Source of the DNA: an uncultured archaeon
GTDB lineage: Archaea > Iainarchaeota > Iainarchaeia > Iainarchaeales > 0-14-0-20-30-16
DNA length: 32,000 nt
Assembly (NCBI GenBank): GCA_964480435.1
Contig: CAYZSS010000002.1
Coordinates: forward strand, 17,654 to 49,653
Direction of reading: 5' to 3'
Shown: piece by piece, positions 12,116 to 29,042 of the stretch
Layout of the letters: each line of letters starts with the position of its first letter
Position numbering within the stretch: the first letter of the stretch is position 1
The notes under the pieces: model-generated
Databases searched by the model: none
Told to the model about the DNA's origin: nothing
What the model saw: only the letters and a program-made list of their open reading frames with translations
Translations under genes and position numbers: made by a program

Positions 12116-12166
12116 ATAGATACATATATATATTTTTTAGTTAATATAGGATATTAAGGTGTTTTT

Positions 12167-14593
12167 ATGGGCAATGAAAGCAGTGCTATAAAAAAAAAGG
12201 ATAATCTTTTAACTTATGATAGTAATAACAAAGAAAAAACAAATAGCATTAGAAGACACCCACAAAAAGCAGAAATTACAACAAAAAAATTAATAATTGC
12301 ATTAAGCATAATAGCAATTATTGTTATTTTATTAGTAGCAGGATATTTCCTATTTTTCCATAAAAATACAGCAAAAACACAACAAGCAGTTATTTTTAAT
12401 AACGGGATATTTATAAAAAAAATCCTGCCAGGAAACCCAACCACAGAGTTTTTGACTTTAGATAATGCACAAGACTATTTTTTAATTGCTTTTTCTCCAA
12501 CTGATTCCAAATTAAAAACAGACAATGCAATATTAACCCTAGAAAAAAACATCTACTTAATTGCAACCACAAATATTTTTGACATAGAGTTAACCTACAA
12601 TTCAAAAAGTTGCGGGCTATATTTGCCAATAAAAACAGCAAATTATAATGATTTTACAGAAGAAGAAAGAACAGAATTAATCAATAAAATAAAAGAAGAA
12701 TATTACCCTGAACTAGATTGCGACTTAGTTAATGTATTTGAAAAAAGCATTATTGAAGAGTTAAATAACGAAATTGTAAAAGGCAATTTAAAAGCACAAA
12801 AAAATACAATAATTTATCTAGCTGCTAAATCAGATGCATTTACTACATACTTAGATGCAATAACCAATTCTGCAAATAATGAACTTAAAAAAGCAAGGAT
12901 AACAAAACAGTATTCAGCCATACCTTTAGACATCAGTTTGGAAGTAAATAAAAATAGCATAAATCCGATTGATGATGATTTTGTAATAAAAATTACTGCA
13001 AATAAACCACTTTTTAAAGAAGACTATATTCTAAATGTTGTAGAAGTAACAAATAAAGAGACATACCCTTTAGCAACAGAATCCAGCCCATATCAAGAAC
13101 AGCCTTTTGTTGCAACAAATTATTGGGATGGTAGCATTAACCAAGGAAAGTTTGGATTAAAATATAAAAAAGCAACATATAATTTAGAAGTAATTAGTAA
13201 ATCCACAAACCAGGTACTTGCAAAAACAACAATAAACACAGACCCAGGGGACCTGTATACAATAGAATACAATTACTATGATTTAAAAAAAGCAATACCC
13301 CCCGAAAAGTATTCCCAATTAAGTTTATATAACCAAGAATCAGAAAAGATACCTTTAATCTTTGATAAACTAGAAAGCAACCCACAAATTGCAAGCACAA
13401 ACCCAGAAATAAAAATAACAACACATAAGACTTATCAAATCCACCCAAAAAGTATTCCGGCTTATAAATTTACACCTTCTGAAACAGAAGTCATTAAATT
13501 ATTAGAACAGTTACCATTTTTGGAAAATATGGAGAATTTATTTTTAAGAGAGCAAGGGGTTTTTGAAAAAAATCTAAACCCTGCACAATTTAAAGCCTTA
13601 AATGATTTAGTTGAAAAAAATGTTATTTATTTAGGACAGCCATACATTGCAACAGTAACTCCCGATTTTACAGAAAGAGATAATTTAATAGACACATCCA
13701 CATTAACTACTTCTTTTTTCGACATAAAACAAATTGAAATAAACACATTTCTTTTTTCACACCCATGTGCAAACAAAGACGACACTGTTTGCTTAATGCA
13801 AGCCGCATATTTGCGCCAATTACCAAAGGATGGTGATATAGGCGGTTATGCAAACTTAGAAAAAAATGCAGATATTAACAAAGATTTTATTATTACTGCA
13901 AAAGAAGGAACCAACAAAGATTGGTTATTTATTGCCCCACACGGTGGAGTAATAGAACCAGGAACAGACCTTCTTGCAGCGGATTTAGCTAGCGAGGGTA
14001 ATTATGGGCTATATACTTTTGTAAGCAATAATCAGGTTTGTTTTGAAAATGAGTGCAGGTCAATGCATATGACATCAACACAATTCGATGAGCCAAGCAT
14101 GTTTAAATTAATAGATGATTATAATGAAGGAGTTGCAATATCTTTACACTGTTATGGAAGTAATGCAAAAGATGATCCTTACCCTGGAGAAGAAAATGAA
14201 CATATAGTAATTGGTGGACAAAACCATAATTTACAAATACTAATGGTAAAAGAATTAACTCAATTAGGATTTACGGGGTTAGAAATAAGAGCAAAAGATT
14301 ATGCTGACAATTTAACTGAATTAAATAAACTTAGGGCTGCTGTCCCAAGCAGTGTAGAGGTTTCTATAAATGGATTATTTGCGGGGGTAGATTCAGCAAA
14401 TATGGTAAACCTTAGCAAAGACAAAGGAGTTCAAATAGAAATTAGCAGAAAATATATGCGAAAATTTATTATCCTTAACTCAGAATGTGGATTTACAAAA
14501 ACCCAGACATATCATAATTTTGTTACTGGTTTAATTAATGCAATGCACCAATATGAATCAGAGTATATTTATCAAGATGTGGTTGAAAGTTAG
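12167..14593 (+). CDS. Type II membrane-anchored surface protein with a C-terminal poly-gamma-glutamate-hydrolase-like (PghP/DUF867) domain
   Basis: A K-rich N-terminus is followed by one TM helix (LIIALSIIAIIVILLVAGYFLFF). The C-terminus reads LFIAPHGGVIEPGT...MHMTSTQFDEP...ISLHCYGS...IVIGGQNHNL...GVQIEISRKYMRKF, which matches the PghP family pattern including the H/E/H zinc ligand positions. The Shine-Dalgarno sequence is AAGGTG. Confidence 0.8.
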   Translation: MGNESSAIKKKDNLLTYDSNNKEKTNSIRRHPQKAEITTKKLIIALSIIAIIVILLVAGYFLFFHKNTAKTQQAVIFNNGIFIKKILPGNPTTEFLTLDNAQDYFLIAFSPTDSKLKTDNAILTLEKNIYLIATTNIFDIELTYNSKSCGLYLPIKTANYNDFTEEERTELINKIKEEYYPELDCDLVNVFEKSIIEELNNEIVKGNLKAQKNTIIYLAAKSDAFTTYLDAITNSANNELKKARITKQYSAIPLDISLEVNKNSINPIDDDFVIKITANKPLFKEDYILNVVEVTNKETYPLATESSPYQEQPFVATNYWDGSINQGKFGLKYKKATYNLEVISKSTNQVLAKTTINTDPGDLYTIEYNYYDLKKAIPPEKYSQLSLYNQESEKIPLIFDKLESNPQIASTNPEIKITTHKTYQIHPKSIPAYKFTPSETEVIKLLEQLPFLENMENLFLREQGVFEKNLNPAQFKALNDLVEKNVIYLGQPYIATVTPDFTERDNLIDTSTLTTSFFDIKQIEINTFLFSHPCANKDDTVCLMQAAYLRQLPKDGDIGGYANLEKNADINKDFIITAKEGTNKDWLFIAPHGGVIEPGTDLLAADLASEGNYGLYTFVSNNQVCFENECRSMHMTSTQFDEPSMFKLIDDYNEGVAISLHCYGSNAKDDPYPGEENEHIVIGGQNHNLQILMVKELTQLGFTGLEIRAKDYADNLTELNKLRAAVPSSVEVSINGLFAGVDSANMVNLSKDKGVQIEISRKYMRKFIILNSECGFTKTQTYHNFVTGLINAMHQYESEYIYQDVVES
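12261..12773. repeat. 513-bp dispersed repeat, copy 1 (partner at 26203-26715)
   Basis: The two copies sit at a constant offset of 13942 at both ends, with mostly third-position differences. 12674-12747 is identical to 26616-26689 (74 nt). Confidence 0.85.
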
Positions 14594-14629
14594 TTTATCT
14601 TCAAGGGTTATGTTATTAACAAGATAAAC
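14593..14629. terminator. Inverted repeat between convergent genes
   Basis: GTTTATCTT (14593-14601) pairs with AAGATAAAC (14621-14629). This is a 9-bp stem with a 19-nt loop, followed by an A8/T5 tract. Confidence 0.3.
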
Positions 14630-14654
14630 AAAATAAGACAAAAAAAAGTTTTTA

Positions 14655-15035
14655 TTACTTCTTTTTTGTAATATTGTCTATTCCTTTTTCGATAGCAGAA
14701 ATAAGACTTCTCTCAGTACCATATTCTAAAAATATCTGGGATACTGCTTTAAGTGATCCTGATAACTCTGAGCCTCTTTTATAGATGCAAATTATTGGTA
14801 TTAGTTTTTTGTCTGCCCAACCCAATTCAATACCTAATCCTATTGAAGGATTTGATACGTCTGCAATAACTAAATCACAATCAGTATTAAAAAACTCTTT
14901 TGAATTATAGGGTGCTGTTGAATGTTCGTGTGGCAAAACAAAATTATGAATTTTATTTAATGCACTTTTCCTTATTGGATCATATAGTTCTTTCTTAAAA
15001 TCAAAAGAAGTTGAGTGTGCAACATAAATATTCAT
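14655..15035 (-). CDS. Nucleoside 2-deoxyribosyltransferase-like Rossmann-fold protein
   Basis: 126 aa. CDLVIADVSNPSIGLGIELGWADKKLIPIICIY resembles the D-x-G-T-x-x-E-x-G-x-A...PV motif of the NDT/Rcl-type family. The assignment is tentative. Confidence 0.45.
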   Translation of the reverse strand: MNIYVAHSTSFDFKKELYDPIRKSALNKIHNFVLPHEHSTAPYNSKEFFNTDCDLVIADVSNPSIGLGIELGWADKKLIPIICIYKRGSELSGSLKAVSQIFLEYGTERSLISAIEKGIDNITKKK

Positions 15036-15065
15036 AAAATAATTAGAATTCTAAAATTTATAAGC

Positions 15066-17147: not shown

Positions 17148-17778
17148 TTACCCACCTAGAAATTACTTTATAGCTTAAAATCAGATCATCAACACCTTTA
17201 AGAGTCTCAGAAAAAAGGATAATTTTCTTTTCCGAAATGCCTTTTTTTATATCTATAGCCTGTATTATCTGCTCTCCAAAGCCCTTATCCTTGTAGACTA
17301 CAGAGTGTTCTAGGGTTTCAATTATATTATCCCTAAATGTTTGGTTACCCATAAAAGCAAGAATTATTTTTTTAAGTTTAGGATCTGAAATTAGTTCAAG
17401 CGGGATTCTTAGTTTTTTTATTTCTTCTCTATAATCTTTATCAGTCATAGATCTCATTTTATGTTTCCAATAAACCGAATCAAAAAATCTCTTTCGCTTT
17501 GTGGTTTTAATATAATTGACAGCATCAAAGTTTATTTTCTGCCAGACCTTAAGTTTTTCCATAAGATCTTCTTTTTGTTTTAACAGTTCCCCCAGTTCAT
17601 CCTTTATTTTTTGTTTACTAGGATATGTAACTCTTAGCTGAGGCGTATATTTAGTTTTTACTATGCCACCTTTCTTAAAATAATAAATTACGGCACTCTT
17701 CTCTTTGGACTTTAATTTTTTAACCTCATTACTATATGTTTTTTCAAACTGCCCAAAGGAGGTATAAAGATTACCCAT
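17137..17778 (-). CDS. Hypothetical protein, 213 aa, overlapping the hel308 start by 11 nt
   Basis: I prefer the ATG at 17778 (MGNLYTSFGQFEK...). The TATA-like TTTTTATATC lies about 25 nt upstream. The track's longer form would start inside a GC-rich hairpin. I recognise no motif. Confidence 0.55.
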   Translation of the reverse strand: MGNLYTSFGQFEKTYSNEVKKLKSKEKSAVIYYFKKGGIVKTKYTPQLRVTYPSKQKIKDELGELLKQKEDLMEKLKVWQKINFDAVNYIKTTKRKRFFDSVYWKHKMRSMTDKDYREEIKKLRIPLELISDPKLKKIILAFMGNQTFRDNIIETLEHSVVYKDKGFGEQIIQAIDIKKGISEKKIILFSETLKGVDDLILSYKVISRWVSDK

Positions 17779-21009: not shown

Positions 21010-22725
21010 CTATTCTATTTCTGTTACTTTAAAGTTGTCAAAAGCTTGAGCCGAGCTAGACAAATATAATCCAATCCATCTTGCTTTTTCATCTTTTTCT
21101 GCACCGGAGTTATCCACGTATGTGGACCATTCTTCGCCATTTACATAGGCAGTGTACGTGTTGCCTTTAACAACAAATTTCAAAGTAACATCTGCCCCTT
21201 TTGCTAATGTACCTGTTGGGTTTTTCTGAAGAATATCACTCCAACCACCAGAGATACCCGCTGCTGCTTTTATCCAATATGACTCTCCAGGATAAGCAAT
21301 ACCATAAGATTCTATAAATGGCTTATAGATAAAGGTAAGACCATCAATTGCAGCATAATAAGGATATTCTGTGCCTCTTAGAACTACTCCCGCATCTAAT
21401 GAATTCTTTAGGTCCACTTCAATAATATAGTTCTTAGCGTTTACTTTTAGACCCACAAATTTTTTACCTACATAAGGAGTAGTTGGTACAACACCATCAA
21501 CCAAATATTGTAATTTTCCTGCTGCAACTCCAAAACCATTCTTTGACAAACCCCAGTCAGCCCAGTATTTTTTTGTAAATTCAGGATTTTCAAAATCATC
21601 TTTAAATCCAGTCATTACTCCTGCCGGGCCTAAATCAGTAACCCCGCTGTCAACATAGTCTTCAATAGCAGTTACTTTAAAGTTGTCAAATACTTGCCCA
21701 GTATTAGGCCAATAAAGACCAACCCAGTTTTCTTTATCCCCGCTATATTCATTTTTTTCATCTATATATGTTACAGATTCTTCACCATTTACATAGGCAG
21801 TAAATTTATTTCCTTGGACAACTACTTTCAAGTGCAAATTAACACCTTCATCTAAAGTTCCTTTTTCACTTTCCAAATATAAGGACCCCCAACTATAAGA
21901 TCTATTTGTCCAATATGCTTTTCCAGGCATCTTTGCTTCATAGGAATAATTTGATGGCAAATAAATGTATGCCAAACCGCCAAGAGATTTTTCTGGTGCG
22001 AATTCTAAACCTCTAACTATAATTCCTGCGTGTTGTGAGTTTTTTAAATCAACTTCAACAACATAATCTTTGGCGTTTACTTTTAAGCCAATAAATCTTT
22101 CACCAACAATTTTTGTATCTGGAACTTTTCCATCAATTAAATATTGAAGACCACCATTTACAACTTCAAAAGAATTTTCTCCAAAGCCCCAACTAGCCCA
22201 ATATTTTGCACTATAATCTGCGCTTTCAAAATTATCAGAAAAAGGCAGTGACACTCCGCTATCAGTTACTTCTGAATTATTTTCTGTTTTTGTTTCATCT
22301 GTATAAGTTTGTGTATTATCTATTGATTTTGTTTCAGTATCAGTAATTGTTGTTTCTGCAGTTACAATTTCTTCTGGATTCCCAGACTCAATTAATTTTG
22401 AGCCATTAGCAATAACACACATTACTTGGTTATCACTTTCTCTAATATACACTGTTATATGTGTACTGTCCTGATAAAAATCTGCAACCCAGTAAGGCAC
22501 AGCTTTCATCTGCACACCACATTCTTCTTTTATTTTATCTAAATATTGATCTACAACATCTTGCTCCCATAATGCCATTTTAAATTCTGCATTTGGGTAT
22601 TGTGCTAAAAAAGCCTGTACTTGTGGCAATCCTTTTGCTACACTTTCCACGCCCCCACTACCAACACAACCAGATAGTGATAAAACCAATACTAATGTTA
22701 ATACCCCTACTATTGTTTTCCACAT
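21010..22725 (-). CDS. Secreted lipoprotein with two tandem ConA-like/LamG (DUF1080-type) lectin domains
   Basis: The signal peptide plus lipobox is VLVLSLSGC. A Thr/Glu-rich linker follows. Two ~200-aa repeats lie at about 21661-22248 and 21013-21612. Each starts D(N/D)FE...KYWA.WG and ends FDNFKVT(A/E)IE. The DNA repeat gttactttaaagttgtcaaa occurs at both repeat ends. The Shine-Dalgarno sequence is AAGGGGG. Confidence 0.7.
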   Translation of the reverse strand: MWKTIVGVLTLVLVLSLSGCVGSGGVESVAKGLPQVQAFLAQYPNAEFKMALWEQDVVDQYLDKIKEECGVQMKAVPYWVADFYQDSTHITVYIRESDNQVMCVIANGSKLIESGNPEEIVTAETTITDTETKSIDNTQTYTDETKTENNSEVTDSGVSLPFSDNFESADYSAKYWASWGFGENSFEVVNGGLQYLIDGKVPDTKIVGERFIGLKVNAKDYVVEVDLKNSQHAGIIVRGLEFAPEKSLGGLAYIYLPSNYSYEAKMPGKAYWTNRSYSWGSLYLESEKGTLDEGVNLHLKVVVQGNKFTAYVNGEESVTYIDEKNEYSGDKENWVGLYWPNTGQVFDNFKVTAIEDYVDSGVTDLGPAGVMTGFKDDFENPEFTKKYWADWGLSKNGFGVAAGKLQYLVDGVVPTTPYVGKKFVGLKVNAKNYIIEVDLKNSLDAGVVLRGTEYPYYAAIDGLTFIYKPFIESYGIAYPGESYWIKAAAGISGGWSDILQKNPTGTLAKGADVTLKFVVKGNTYTAYVNGEEWSTYVDNSGAEKDEKARWIGLYLSSSAQAFDNFKVTEIE

Positions 22726-23215: not shown

Positions 23216-24649
23216 TTAGTTTCCGTTATTTGATACAGAAGGCCTTAATAATAGACGATATGGGCTTGCATTCCCTACTTTTAGAGCCACATCTGTTTCA
23301 GAAATAACATCTATCTGGATAGATTTATATTTTATAAGAGCATCATTTAAATCTGAAATACTGTTTGCAGATAACACAAAATACCCATTAAAAGAAAGCA
23401 AATAATTACAGATATCATTTTGTATTAAGTTTAAAGATTTTGGGCAGAAAAACCCAGCACTAGGAATAACAAAAGCAATATTTTCTTTTGTGCCAAAACT
23501 TTTTATTATATTTTGAGATATCAAATATTTTTCAATATTATTTCCAGTAATAGTAAGAAGAGTTATTTTTCCAATTTTATTTGAAATAACTTTATCAACA
23601 CCATCCAAAGATATTTTTCCTTTGAATAAATTAGGATATGTTAATTTCAAAGTATGGGCCATTCTTTTTGCAAGATAAAGATCATATTCTTTTATTTGTT
23701 CATCAGGCCCAACTTTAGAAATATAACCTATTAATTCATCTATGCTTGCAGGGTTATTATCTTTTGCCCTTTTAAAAATTTCTTTATATTCTTTAAATAA
23801 TCCAAATAATTCTGCAAAACTCTCCAAAGAAACAGAAGACAAATCGACCCACAAATTTGAATTACTTGTACCATCATAATACAAACTTTCAATTGGAAAT
23901 CCAGTTGGCTCAGAATTAGAATTAAATTGTTTAACTAGCTCCGCGTCTGGGTTTGCTTGTTTTAAACCTAAATAAGATTTTTCAAAGTCGAATACTACTA
24001 CTGGTATAGCACCCAAAGAAAATTCTTCAGTAATGTCAAAAATAAGCCCTTTTTGATTTTCTTTTTTTCCAAATATAATTGTTTTTCTAAATGCATCGAT
24101 TTCTTCTGATGCTAATTCTTCTGATGCCTTATGCTTACCCAAAGTTAACATGTGCCCAAAATTTAATTTAACATCTGAAATCTTTTGCAGCCCAGTGGGT
24201 TTCTGCATAGCCTTAAACACATTTAAAGGATTTATAAAAAATGCTGCTTGGGCATCCTTACCTGATTCATGCAAATCCTTTAGATCAATATCATATGTTT
24301 CCGCAATATCAAATACTACTTTTTTTGTTTTTGCTAAAACTTGTATCTGTTTTGTTATTTCCCGATCCATTTCCACCTTATTATTAGGTATTGCCACAGA
24401 TGGGACAGTTAAGCAAAAAAACTTGTCTGTTCGATTTGAGCCATGGATTAAATAAAGTAAATTGTCTTTAGGCAATGTTTCTGCAAAAGACTCTAAATCC
24501 CCTTTAGCATAACCAACATAAATAACATTGATTACCAGATTAGCACTATCATTACTATACAGTTCAGTAAGTATAAAACTATCAAGCATAGACACTTTTA
24601 AGGCATGGCCATCATATTTCCCTTCAAATAAAATAGCCCAATCTGCCAT
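23216..24649 (-). CDS. Hypothetical cytoplasmic protein, 477 aa
   Basis: I place the start at ATG 24649 (MADWAILFEGKYDG...). The track's 57-codon extension is low-complexity and would overlap the divergent gene at 24729. I found no clear catalytic motif. Confidence 0.55.
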   Translation of the reverse strand: MADWAILFEGKYDGHALKVSMLDSFILTELYSNDSANLVINVIYVGYAKGDLESFAETLPKDNLLYLIHGSNRTDKFFCLTVPSVAIPNNKVEMDREITKQIQVLAKTKKVVFDIAETYDIDLKDLHESGKDAQAAFFINPLNVFKAMQKPTGLQKISDVKLNFGHMLTLGKHKASEELASEEIDAFRKTIIFGKKENQKGLIFDITEEFSLGAIPVVVFDFEKSYLGLKQANPDAELVKQFNSNSEPTGFPIESLYYDGTSNSNLWVDLSSVSLESFAELFGLFKEYKEIFKRAKDNNPASIDELIGYISKVGPDEQIKEYDLYLAKRMAHTLKLTYPNLFKGKISLDGVDKVISNKIGKITLLTITGNNIEKYLISQNIIKSFGTKENIAFVIPSAGFFCPKSLNLIQNDICNYLLSFNGYFVLSANSISDLNDALIKYKSIQIDVISETDVALKVGNASPYRLLLRPSVSNNGN

Positions 24650-24728
24650 AGTTATCACACTTAGTGTATATAAATATAAACTTAGCAAATATATACTTTG
24701 CGGATATATAATGTTATAGTGATAATTT

Positions 24729-25196
24729 ATGGTTGTTAGAAGATTACGGGGAGTAGGGGATATAAAAAGAGGAAATACCCAAAAAGCACAAATATATATT
24801 TCACAAGATTTTAGGTCCAAACCCGAGAAAAAAACAACACTAAGAGACAGAATAAGACAAATTCAGGATAATATCCAAAAAAGAAGGCTTGAAAGAATGC
24901 ACCCAGCGGTTAGACAAGCATATGTTAGCTATCTGGCTGCAGAAAAAAGTCTAAAACGATTTCAAAAAGGAGTAAAAACACTAAAAGAGCAAAATAAAGC
25001 AGAACTAGAAGAATGGAAAAAGAAGTTAAAAAATGCAGACGATGAAGAGAAAGCTGAAATTCTTACACAAGCTAAAGAAGATAGACAAAAAAGAACAGAT
25101 TATTTAGATAGTTGGAAACATGCTCTAGAAAATGCAGAAAGCGACTACAAAATAGCAAGACAAGAATTAATTGAAGCAAGAAAGGAACACGGGTAG
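24729..25196 (+). CDS. Highly charged coiled-coil protein, function unknown
   Basis: 155 aa, K/E/R-rich heptad-like sequence (KGVKTLKEQNKAELEEWKKKLKNADDEEKAEILTQAKEDRQKR). Confidence 0.5.
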   Translation: MVVRRLRGVGDIKRGNTQKAQIYISQDFRSKPEKKTTLRDRIRQIQDNIQKRRLERMHPAVRQAYVSYLAAEKSLKRFQKGVKTLKEQNKAELEEWKKKLKNADDEEKAEILTQAKEDRQKRTDYLDSWKHALENAESDYKIARQELIEARKEHG

Positions 25197-26183: not shown

Positions 26184-29042
26184 ATGGCTAACAAAAAAGG
26201 TACACAAAAAACAGAAATTACAACAAAAACACTAATAATTGCAGTAAGCATAATAGCTGTTATTATTGTTTTATTGGTAGCTGGGTATTTCTTGTTTTTC
26301 CATGAAAATGCTGCAAAGACACAACAAACAGTTATTTTTAATAATGGGATATTTACAAAAAAGATACTGCCAGGAAACCCAACCACAGAGTTTATGACTT
26401 TAGATAATGCACAAGATTATTTTTTAATTGCTTTTTCTCCAACTGATTCTAAATTAAAAACAGATAATGATGTGCTAACCCTAGAAGAAAACATATATCT
26501 AATTGCAACCAACAATGTTTTTGACATAGAACTAACATATAATTCAAAAAGTTGCGGATTATATTTACCAATAAAAACATCAAACTATAATGATTTTACC
26601 GAAGAAGAAAGAATGGAATTAATCAATAAAATAAAAGAAGAATATTACCCTGAACTAGATTGCGACTTAGTTAATGTATTTGAAAAAAGTATTATTGAAG
26701 AGCTAAATAACGAAACCCTGATGGGTAATTTAGAAGCACAAAAAAATACAACAATTTATCTGAAAGACAAAGAAGAATCAGCTTTAAAAACAGTTTATTT
26801 TAATGCAATAGATGCAGGAAAAGCCATGCTTGAAGAAGCAAAGATAAAAAAACAGTACAGCGATGTTGATTTAAAAGTTACCATGACAGCAAATAAAACT
26901 AACATAAATCCATTTGAAGATGAGTTTATAATAACTATTGTTGCAAACAAACCACTTTTTAAAAATGATTATATTTTAAAAGCTAGAGACATGTATAACA
27001 ACAAAGAGTATTACCTAGATACTGAGCCAACATCAAACCAAAATGCACCTTTCGTTGCACAAATTTATTGGGACGGTTGTATTAATAACAAAGATTATGG
27101 ATTAATGTATAAAAATGCAACATTTGATTTAAGATTAATTAGCCCTACTACAGACAGAGTATTTGATATTCAACTAGTTACAACCAATATAGGAGAATTA
27201 TATTTACCCGCATATAGTTACAATGAATTAGAAAAAGCTATACCCCCAGATAAATACTCTGAAATAGACGTATTTAATCACGAATCAAAAAAAACACCCA
27301 TAATTTTTAATTATTTTGAGGCAAACCCTGGGCCCTCAAAAAGTAGTAATCCAAATATAACCGTAACATTCAATAAAACATACCAACTACATTCAAAAAG
27401 TGTTTTTGCATACAAACTCACTCCTTCTGAAACAGAGGTAGTTAAGTTATTAGAAAAGTTACCCTTTTTGGAAAATATAGATAATTTATTTTTAAGAGAG
27501 CAAGGCGTTTTTGAAAAAGATTTTACAGAAACCCAAAAAGCAGCATTAAATAGCCTAGTTGAAAAAAACATAATTTATTTATGGCAACCATATATTGCCA
27601 CAATAACTCCAAATCTTACTGAAACAGCAAATACAGAATTAGTAACAGAGTCCAAATTAAACTGGAATTTTTTTGAAAAAAAAGAACTACTAATACGTAC
27701 TTTCCTTTTTAGTGACAAGCTATCGCTACAAGACGCAATTACAGTAATAAAAAATTCAAACTCAACTGAACAAAAGTTTGAACCAATAATAAAGATTGCA
27801 AATAAAATACGTATAAGACAAAACAAACTTAATTCTTTAAATATGGCCTATGACCTTTATGAAAGTGATTATATTCTTGCATTAAAAAATAAAAAAATTA
27901 GTTGTATTTCAGGGGCCCTACTTATTGCAAAAACAACAGATTATTTGCTTAGAGAAGCTGGAGAAAAAAATTACAAGATTTCTTTTGTAGAAGTTGAGGG
28001 GTCAGGAGAATATTGGGAAGGAGCATACAAAGGAGCACACATCATCACAAAAGTAACCATAGATGATGTAACAAAATTCTTTGATGCAACAAACAGCACA
28101 AATCAAGATGATTTTATTATTATGTACGCAGGCAAAAAATACAAATTACAAGCGAATGATTCACAAAAAACAACCTACAGAATAAGTACTGAATTCAGTA
28201 TAGAAGACACAGAACTTTTTTCAAAAATGCAAGCAAAAATTGTAAAGGGAACCGAGCTAACAACACAGGAGATTATGTCTATTCCAATTGATTTTTTGCC
28301 TACTGCCTTAAGCATTTATAACGAACTGCAAAAAAATCAAGTTATATTTTCTATATTAAGCAAAAGAAACCTTACTACCACCAGCCAAATTAAACAAATA
28401 CAAAACAAATACACTGCATTAAAAATAAACTCAAGTATCCTAAACTATTACTCCAATACCAACACAGAAATACCGTCTGAATTTGCCACCAATCAACACA
28501 ATGCTTTTTTAGATTTATATAAACAAGATGCCAACTTATATGACAACATTAATCTTTTAAGAATTTTAAGCCCAAACATTTTAGCATATAATGAACTTTT
28601 AAAAAATAAAAACACATACTCAGACATATTATGGGACAGAATTTTAACTACTTTTTCGATATTCCCTTTAGATCCAGAAAAAATGACAAAAACACAAATA
28701 GAAGATGCTAAAAAAATTATTTTCTTATATCCTGCTTATCATGAAAGCCTTTACACTATTTCAGAGCCTGATGCACCAGAACAAAAAGAGATAACCTCTT
28801 ATCAGCTCATATTAATGGGATTTGCCACATTAAGATACCAATATTATTACCTTACTAATAATCACACAGATTATGCTAATTCATTAGATAACTTTGTTAT
28901 AAAAGTAGTAAGTTACATAAATTCAAAAAAATCCGGGTTCAAACAGAGATTTGAAAACCCAGTAGTTAGTTCTAATGATCCTCTTGACAAAAAAGGAGCA
29001 CAAATTTATATTTATGGCCAGGAAACTACAGATTTTACTTAA
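26184..29042 (+). CDS. Type II membrane-anchored surface protein, paralogue of 12167-14593, with a transglutaminase-like cysteine-peptidase core and a long helical tail
   Basis: The TM helix is LIIAVSIIAVIIVLLVAGYFLFF. Residues 11-184 are about 90% identical to the paralogue. A candidate C-H-D triad reads ISC574ISGALLIAKTTDYLLREAG ... GAH619IITKV ... FFD634ATN. Confidence 0.75.
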   Translation: MANKKGTQKTEITTKTLIIAVSIIAVIIVLLVAGYFLFFHENAAKTQQTVIFNNGIFTKKILPGNPTTEFMTLDNAQDYFLIAFSPTDSKLKTDNDVLTLEENIYLIATNNVFDIELTYNSKSCGLYLPIKTSNYNDFTEEERMELINKIKEEYYPELDCDLVNVFEKSIIEELNNETLMGNLEAQKNTTIYLKDKEESALKTVYFNAIDAGKAMLEEAKIKKQYSDVDLKVTMTANKTNINPFEDEFIITIVANKPLFKNDYILKARDMYNNKEYYLDTEPTSNQNAPFVAQIYWDGCINNKDYGLMYKNATFDLRLISPTTDRVFDIQLVTTNIGELYLPAYSYNELEKAIPPDKYSEIDVFNHESKKTPIIFNYFEANPGPSKSSNPNITVTFNKTYQLHSKSVFAYKLTPSETEVVKLLEKLPFLENIDNLFLREQGVFEKDFTETQKAALNSLVEKNIIYLWQPYIATITPNLTETANTELVTESKLNWNFFEKKELLIRTFLFSDKLSLQDAITVIKNSNSTEQKFEPIIKIANKIRIRQNKLNSLNMAYDLYESDYILALKNKKISCISGALLIAKTTDYLLREAGEKNYKISFVEVEGSGEYWEGAYKGAHIITKVTIDDVTKFFDATNSTNQDDFIIMYAGKKYKLQANDSQKTTYRISTEFSIEDTELFSKMQAKIVKGTELTTQEIMSIPIDFLPTALSIYNELQKNQVIFSILSKRNLTTTSQIKQIQNKYTALKINSSILNYYSNTNTEIPSEFATNQHNAFLDLYKQDANLYDNINLLRILSPNILAYNELLKNKNTYSDILWDRILTTFSIFPLDPEKMTKTQIEDAKKIIFLYPAYHESLYTISEPDAPEQKEITSYQLILMGFATLRYQYYYLTNNHTDYANSLDNFVIKVVSYINSKKSGFKQRFENPVVSSNDPLDKKGAQIYIYGQETTDFT
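26203..26715. repeat. 513-bp dispersed repeat, copy 2 (partner at 12261-12773)
   Basis: See copy 1. It encodes the shared anchor and stalk. Confidence 0.85.

Follow-up and report, generated by a model that had tools for sequence, protein, structure and literature searches.

A chimeric archaeal gene joins a PghP-type hydrolase domain to a lineage-specific stalk with a predicted membrane anchor

The subject of this analysis is a gene of an uncultured archaeon of the order Iainarchaeales, lying in a stretch of 32,000 nucleotides (nt; hereafter the window) that spans positions 17,654 to 49,653 of contig CAYZSS010000002.1. The gene, an open reading frame (ORF) on the + strand at 12167-14593, encodes 808 amino acids (aa) in a frame intact over all 808 codons; a first-pass annotation, made from the letters alone, had assigned its C-terminal part to the poly-gamma-glutamate (gamma-PGA) hydrolases of the PghP type. 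Here, I show that this part is a genuine PF05908 (MEROPS M86) domain with the PghP fold, that it sits as a head on a lineage-specific stalk which also occurs elsewhere in the window under a different head, and that the whole gene is accessory, a chimera that arose recently and in this species only.

The window DNA is AT-rich (about 30% guanine plus cytosine) and archaeal in gene content, also encoding a thermosome, a Hel308 helicase with the archaeal domain 4, and two U32-family proteins; a composition scan of the window gave no local anomaly. Thirty contigs make up the assembly, 0.72 Mb in all; at 77% completeness the whole genome would measure roughly 0.9 Mb and be a DPANN-sized one, and the archaeal, reduced-genome setting presumed in the first-pass annotation is thereby confirmed. 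The gene and its upstream region are composed as follows.

12122-12166, + strand: upstream region with a TATA-like AT-rich stretch (12122-12148) and a Shine-Dalgarno-like AAGGTG (12156-12161), as read from the sequence
12167-12289, + strand, aa 1-41: basic N-terminal tail, predicted to be cytoplasmic (10 K/R, 5 D/E; positive-inside rule)
12290-12358, + strand, aa 42-64: single transmembrane helix (signal anchor), from a Kyte-Doolittle peak
12359-13780, + strand, aa 65-538: lineage-specific stalk module, outside any Pfam family, recognised by similarity to a paralogue and to a protein of a congener
13781-14590, + strand, aa 539-808: PghP-like PF05908 / M86 zinc hydrolase head (Pfam, AlphaFold2, Foldseek, VIA-align)
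13940-13957, + strand: predicted zinc ligands H592 and E597 (HGGVIE), invariant in 107/107 aligned sequences and equivalent to PghL H41/E46 and PghP H40/E45
14039-14056, + strand: clade-specific Cys pair C625/C630 in a predicted beta-hairpin, with C630 in the column of PghL Asn73
14066-14077, + strand: H634-x-T636-S637 motif, equivalent to PghL His77, Thr79 and Ser80 (substrate and catalysis)
14147-14149, + strand: third predicted zinc ligand H661, invariant, equivalent to PghL H102 and PghP H103
14276-14353, + strand: insertion of 26 aa (about aa 704-729), present in the window protein only (alignment), with a helix at model residues 177-186
14438-14461, + strand: predicted catalytic E758, followed by S760, R761 and R765; M764 sits in the column of PghL Arg171

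The AAGGTG ends 5 nt before the ATG and, along with the AT-rich stretch, is compatible with independent expression of the gene, the two serving as putative ribosome-binding site and promoter.

Membership of the head in the family is supported by several lines of evidence. The Pfam profile Gamma_PGA_hydro (PF05908) matches aa 561-768 with an E-value (E) of 1.9e-27 and 96.4 bits against a cut-off of 22 bits (94.7 bits in the profile scan of the whole genome), and PHROG 4175, annotated as 'poly-gamma-glutamate hydrolase', matches at E 5.3e-20. By sequence, a HMMER search of the PDB retrieves as the only solved relatives the hydrolase of phage PM1 (21dc), PghL/YndL (5onl and 5onj) and PghP (3a9l). 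For aa 540-808, an AlphaFold2 model based on an alignment of 107 sequences reaches a mean predicted local distance difference test score (pLDDT) of 93.6 and a predicted template-modelling (TM) score of 0.91; Foldseek places 21dc, 3a9l and 5onj at the top ranks for it (E 2e-15 to 5e-13, TM-scores by target 0.85-0.86). VIA-align superposes the model on 3a9l with Z 25.8 and a root-mean-square deviation (rmsd) of 1.9 A over 202/207 residues, on 21dc with Z 25.5 and on 5onj with Z 24.6 (rmsd range 1.8-1.9 A), the next tier being formed by Amidase_3 amidases and N-formylglutamate amidohydrolase (FGase) at Z of about 12. The match is far beyond chance, and both the profile search and the superposition on the PghP crystal structure, by which the first-pass annotation had proposed to check its family call, uphold it. 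The five motifs that it quoted are found in frame in the ORF at aa 585-600, 632-644, 657-665, 679-690 and 754-767, and the start that it gave for the cassette, 13760 (aa 532), falls within about 10 residues of the actual module junction.

The active centre can be read against two characterised enzymes. The zinc ligands of PghL, His41, Glu46 and His102, correspond to His40, Glu45 and His103 of PghP, and alanine mutants of PghP at His40, Glu45, His78, His103 and Glu165 are impaired (PMC6506827). In the HMMER alignment to PghL all five of these mutation-sensitive residues are kept in the window protein, as H592, E597, H634, H661 and E758. Residue counts were made in the 107-sequence alignment, which comprises 13 members of the exported clade described below and 94 other family members: H592, E597, H661 and E758 are shared by 107/107 sequences, in agreement with the HxxxxE...H zinc-ligand positions claimed from the letters alone (H592, E597, H661), and H634 is found in 105/107, with T636, S637 and N745 likewise nearly invariant. 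Nothing in these residues points to a dead domain.

The substrate contacts are a different matter. Eight side chains of PghL touch the gamma-PGA hexapeptide, namely Asn73, Ser74, His77, Thr79, Ser80, Asn151, Thr168 and Arg171. Four of the eight, His77, Thr79, Ser80 and Asn151, are kept in the window head as H634, T636, S637 and N745, and the other four are changed throughout its clade: Asn73 to Cys630, Ser74 to Arg/Lys631, Thr168 to Arg761 and Arg171 to Met764. The Arg171 column holds Met, Ile or Leu in 13/13 clade members versus Arg in 85/94 other family members, and an invariant Arg (R765) follows one position after this column throughout the clade. The R171S mutant of PghL is inactive on gamma-PGA. 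Judging from the alignment, the catalytic chemistry is safe to infer, whereas gamma-PGA specificity is not.

The clade itself emerged from an exhaustive HMMER search of 1.84 billion representative proteins, which yielded 595 relatives, of which nine alone count as real (E <1e-24); a gap to 1e-14 follows. In a quick IQ-TREE phylogeny of 94 rows (LG+G4; rows of <170 aa left out) these nine and their close copies form one branch (Shimodaira-Hasegawa-like approximate likelihood ratio test, SH-aLRT, 99), within which the window head groups with the protein of a congener and one metagenome fragment (SH-aLRT 99). The named members belong to the window's own genus and to Candidatus Woesearchaeota, the remainder being unplaced metagenome proteins, among which the genes next to those of 760-790 and 267-274 aa yielded no diagnostic Pfam matches; one locus of the Woesearchaeota type (L096) is archaeal by its P0-type L10, and its clade member has no RimK-type ligase as a neighbour. 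Within the phylum, PF05908 occurs in 2/215 species genomes, both of the window's genus.

Besides the changed contacts, several features set the clade apart. All its members have the pair C625/C630, and the 94 other sequences of the family lack the C625 column; in the model the two residues face each other across a predicted hairpin (strands 85-87 and 90-92), which makes a disulfide probable. An inserted loop with an invariant Gly-Glu (G674-E675) is likewise absent from the 94 other members, and S-R-x3-R is the pattern of the helix that follows the catalytic Glu. A small, well-supported exported clade with a systematically altered substrate cleft is defined here. As to the 26-aa insertion of the window protein, its region also drew 18 stretches of a 4818-aa protein of the horsehair worm Gordionus, dismissed as a repeat or compositional artefact.

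Export signals are widespread in the clade. Five relatives (P0004, P0031 to P0034) carry a classical signal peptide, one relative is truncated, and the Woesearchaeota group of about 400 aa shows an RR motif followed by a hydrophobic segment. In the members of that group (P0005-P0011, P0035; L007, L096) the motif is of a twin-arginine-like RRxFLK type and, like the hydrophobic segment, comes only after some 130 residues of the annotated protein, behind a conserved helical region. Such an internal site is odd for a signal of the twin-arginine translocation type, and translation may in fact start further downstream than annotated.

In the window protein, aa 42-64 form the sole Kyte-Doolittle peak above 1.6 (maximum 3.05). 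Five K/R occur in the 15 residues before this helix and two in the 15 after it, a charge bias which favours an N-in/C-out, type-II anchor. The outside presentation of the head claimed in the first-pass annotation thus finds indirect support, from the charge bias, the export signals of the relatives and the clade-invariant Cys pair, which together make an outward-facing head likely.

The stalk and the head have separate histories, which become apparent by comparison with a second gene of the window.

26184-29042, + strand: paralogue (952 aa) that shares anchor and stalk with the hydrolase protein and ends in a different C-terminal head of 435 aa; a congener has an orthologue over its full length (51% identity)

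Residues 29-538 of the hydrolase protein are 64% identical to aa 4-517 of this paralogue, and the similarity ends at aa 538; the stalk is also 52% identical to a protein of a congener. The head, in turn, is 39% identical to a 596-aa protein of a congener from aa 542 on, which places the junction of head and stalk at aa 538-542 and bears out the cassette on a stalk that the first-pass annotation had described. This 596-aa hydrolase begins with a signal peptide and a Cys-rich N-terminus unrelated to the stalk. One carrier therefore bears two unrelated heads in one genome, and the hydrolase head, in turn, is joined to unrelated carriers in two congeners. The arrangement of the paralogue is the older one, because its orthologue in the congener is full-length, the identity of 51% extending over 931 residues.

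A side observation concerns the Cys-rich carrier: the window's genome also encodes a secreted Cys-rich protein of 313 aa (contig C14, 32-973, - strand) that has no hydrolase domain and shares 40% identity with the first 150 residues of the carrier in the congener's hydrolase, another sign of the shuffling of heads and carriers among the secreted proteins of the genus.

Outside the genus, a distant, colinear relative of the stalk with a transmembrane anchor, 1731 aa long (L092:5274-10469), occurs in another family of the same order (24% identity, E 6e-13); its C-terminal region gives a sub-threshold match to Peptidase_M64 (E 6e-4). The stalk has no Pfam family and no match in the protein atlas, and a word search of 5.8 billion proteins gave no further homologue; its AlphaFold2 model from five sequences is poor (pLDDT 58.7). 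A weak match in one other genome (G166) proved to be a CDC48 ATPase and was discarded as spurious.

The setting of the gene is equally informative. The other two genomes of the genus have the U32 and hel308 genes side by side in convergent orientation, with gaps of 14 and 21 nt; in the window a segment of about 2.9 kb (12116-15065) is inserted between them, which holds the hydrolase gene and one small gene.

14655-15035, - strand: gene of 126 aa with a weak nucleoside deoxyribosyltransferase-like match, inserted along with the hydrolase gene

This small gene is found at the U32-hel308 locus in neither congener, and since U32 and hel308 adjoin each other there, it is not a conserved partner of hel308. 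No direct or inverted repeats flank the insertion. It is the tracing of stalk and head to different genes, together with an insertion at a locus that is intact in the congeners, which identifies the hydrolase gene as a recent chimera confined to this species.

The two paralogues also appear to have remained in genetic contact. Their first ~200 codons are 81-96% identical in DNA (12261-12773 versus 26203-26715), with an identical run of 74 nt, and identity downstream is about 60-78%. This difference indicates that the anchor-proximal 5' part has been homogenised, presumably by gene conversion.

The head of the paralogue (aa 518-740 considered here, 27735-28400) contains a Cys...His...Asp motif (ISCISG / GAHIIT / FDATN), kept unchanged in the orthologue of the congener, with a spacing that resembles that of transglutaminase-like cysteine peptidases; the atlas score for transglutaminase-like clusters is 0.86. 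Pfam, a sequence search of the PDB, a two-sequence profile against the PDB and a word search gave no match for this head, and the transglutaminase-like reading, drawn from the motif and the atlas score, is to be taken as a weak lead only.

What might such a protein do? The short basic cytoplasmic tail, one transmembrane helix and a spacer of about 475 residues would hold the head outside the cell, where a zinc ion bound by His-Glu-His, together with a general-base Glu, would cleave gamma-glutamyl-type amide bonds of an acidic polymer or peptide. The substrate would most likely be foreign, either a component of the capsule or wall of a partner or host, or a free polymer of the environment, because no polymer-making genes were found and because the gene was inserted recently and is accessory. 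The role in remodelling or breaching a partner's envelope that the first-pass annotation had proposed would be one case of this. In the genome, at 77% completeness, neither PGA_cap, CapC, Mur_ligase_M (PgsB/CapB type) nor RimK-type ligases were found, and gamma-glutamyltranspeptidase (GGT) was not found either. A self-made substrate is, within that completeness, unlikely; the missing gamma-PGA synthesis genes fit a non-self target and are no proof of one. On balance, a type-II surface protein with a most likely active, PghP-like zinc endo-hydrolase head acting on a foreign gamma-glutamyl-type substrate is regarded here, with moderate confidence, as the probable reading. Two points weigh against it: with a genome 77% complete, the synthesis genes are to be called not found rather than absent, and the substrate may differ from classical gamma-PGA, because the Asn73 and Arg171 contacts are replaced across the clade and PghL R171S is inactive.

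The latter point leads to the first of the rival explanations, according to which the fold and centre of PghP would cut another amide, for instance a gamma-glutamyl or isopeptide bond in a wall peptide (pseudomurein, the peptidoglycan stem, glutaminylglycan), and not homopolymeric gamma-PGA. The systematic replacement of the Asn73 and Arg171 equivalents speaks for it, as do the predicted disulfide hairpin and the invariant Gly-Glu loop of the clade, both lacking in the 94 other members, the grouping of the clade in one branch with an SH-aLRT of 99, and, for the window protein alone, the 26-aa insertion beside the cleft-edge loop (for this loop in the family, see PMC6506827). Yet the residues recognising the gamma-glutamyl unit (the equivalents of His77, Thr79, Ser80 and Asn151) are all kept, and the Arg one position after the Arg171 column and the Arg in the Thr168 column, both on the same helix, may substitute for Arg171. 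Action on wall peptides, moreover, is not known for any PF05908 member. A shifted specificity is considered possible, on the doubtful side. Scavenging of nutrients would dispense with a partner altogether: the surface enzyme would depolymerise free gamma-PGA or gamma-glutamyl peptides, and a biosynthetically poor archaeon would take up the glutamate oligomers. The reduced genome (0.72 Mb at 77% completeness), a tether that would free the products at the cell surface, and a clade cleft with three invariant or conserved basic residues (R/K631, R761, R765), suited to a polyanion, are in line with it. PghP-family enzymes, however, are endo-hydrolases that yield di- to pentamers and not free glutamate (PMC6506827), and the lack of a detectable GGT, taken with this release of oligomers, slightly weakens a nutritional role; the absence of the gene from one congener and from 213/215 genomes of the phylum would also be odd for core nutrition, so that scavenging seems rather unlikely.

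Remodelling of the archaeon's own envelope, by trimming its own gamma-glutamyl polymer in the manner of bacterial PgdS and CapD-type enzymes, has a precedent on the substrate side, for some archaea make gamma-glutamyl walls or polymers (the glutaminylglycan of Natronococcus, the gamma-PGA of Natrialba), and a membrane tether would retain the enzyme at its own surface. Such a role is nonetheless very unlikely, given that the polymer-making genes named above were not found in the genome, that none lies among the neighbours of the gene, and that the gene is a species-specific insertion, absent at the locus in both congeners. Finally, a gene that is chimeric and recently inserted, and whose DNA identity to its paralogue over the first ~200 codons suggests ongoing exchange, might be an evolutionary by-product of recombination, unexpressed or without function. 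Against this stand the intact frame, the retention of every catalytic residue despite only 39-44% identity to the nearest relatives, and the presence of the AAGGTG and the AT-rich stretch upstream; the by-product explanation is deemed extremely improbable.

Returning to the surface hydrolase with a foreign substrate, the pair of paralogues invites a bolder extension. Both might be DPANN-specific, modular contact effectors, that is, an anchor and stalk with interchangeable heads (a gamma-glutamyl hydrolase in one, a Cys-His-Asp transglutaminase-like isopeptidase in the other) which would open gamma-glutamyl- or isopeptide-linked envelope polymers of the host for attachment or tapping by an episymbiont, the heads being swapped by recombination as hosts change. 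This is put forward as speculation and is, as it stands, unlikely.

Among described systems, the closest are PghP of Bacillus phage PhiNIT1 (3a9l; M86.001) and the hydrolase of phage PM1 (21dc), which share family and fold with the window head; beyond the common zinc ligands, PghP H78 and E165 are equivalent to H634 and E758. Sequence identity to them reaches no more than 23-29%. PghP, at about 200 aa, is a free phage protein made up of one domain, whereas the window domain is the C-terminal head of a membrane-anchored archaeal protein and, unlike PghP, has the extra predicted disulfide hairpin, the Gly-Glu loop and the 26-aa insertion. With PghL/YndL of Bacillus subtilis, known in complex with the gamma-PGA hexapeptide (5onj), the head has in common the equivalents of His77, Thr79, Ser80, Asn151 and the catalytic Glu165; in addition to the contacts listed above, His144 of PghL is replaced by Phe738 throughout the exported clade.

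The Woesearchaeota PF05908 proteins (about 408 aa; NCBI 'poly-gamma-glutamate hydrolase family protein') and the metagenome relatives (267-790 aa) belong to the same clade as the window head and share with it the Cys pair, the Gly-Glu loop, the S-R-x3-R helix and a lead-in motif before the domain. Their N-terminal carriers differ, consisting of a signal peptide alone, of a 530-aa region of unknown nature, or of a helical region with the RR motif and the hydrophobic segment; none has the stalk of the window protein. To polymorphic or modular surface proteins the likeness is one of architecture only, namely a shared carrier, swappable heads and a homogenised 5' part. Unlike polymorphic toxins, the window pair lacks immunity genes, recognised toxin domains and a secretion-system context, and there are only two copies per genome; the pair fits no described polymorphic-toxin family.

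Archaeal PF05908 genes had been counted before, in 5 archaea (Mamberti et al. 2015, PMC4497714), and a literature search found no paper tying the family to DPANN archaea. New here are the membrane-stalk architecture, the exported clade with its altered cleft, the reconstruction of the chimeric origin and the pairing with a paralogue under another head.

DPANN archaea presumably live in attachment to other cells, and very few molecules of the interface are known. The hydrolase gene is a concrete, easily expressed candidate for such a molecule, predicted to face outwards and built on a lineage-specific stalk that also bears a second head. The PF05908 family is otherwise known from phages breaching capsules; as the clade keeps the catalytic centre and alters the cleft, it offers a direct biochemical test of whether the family acts beyond gamma-PGA of the Bacillus type. 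Should the enzyme simply degrade gamma-PGA, it would be an ordinary new member of its family in an unusual architecture. The evolutionary record, with its insertion, separate sources of head and stalk and homogenised 5' end, is unusually clear and shows how such surface proteins are assembled.

Two further ORFs of the window, both on the - strand, may be mentioned. In one of 570 aa (21010-22725) two stretches match the 3-keto-disaccharide hydrolase (DUF1080) family, and another of 533 aa (23216-24820) falls outside the Pfam families; overall, the window appears to be rich in uncharacterised, possibly surface proteins.

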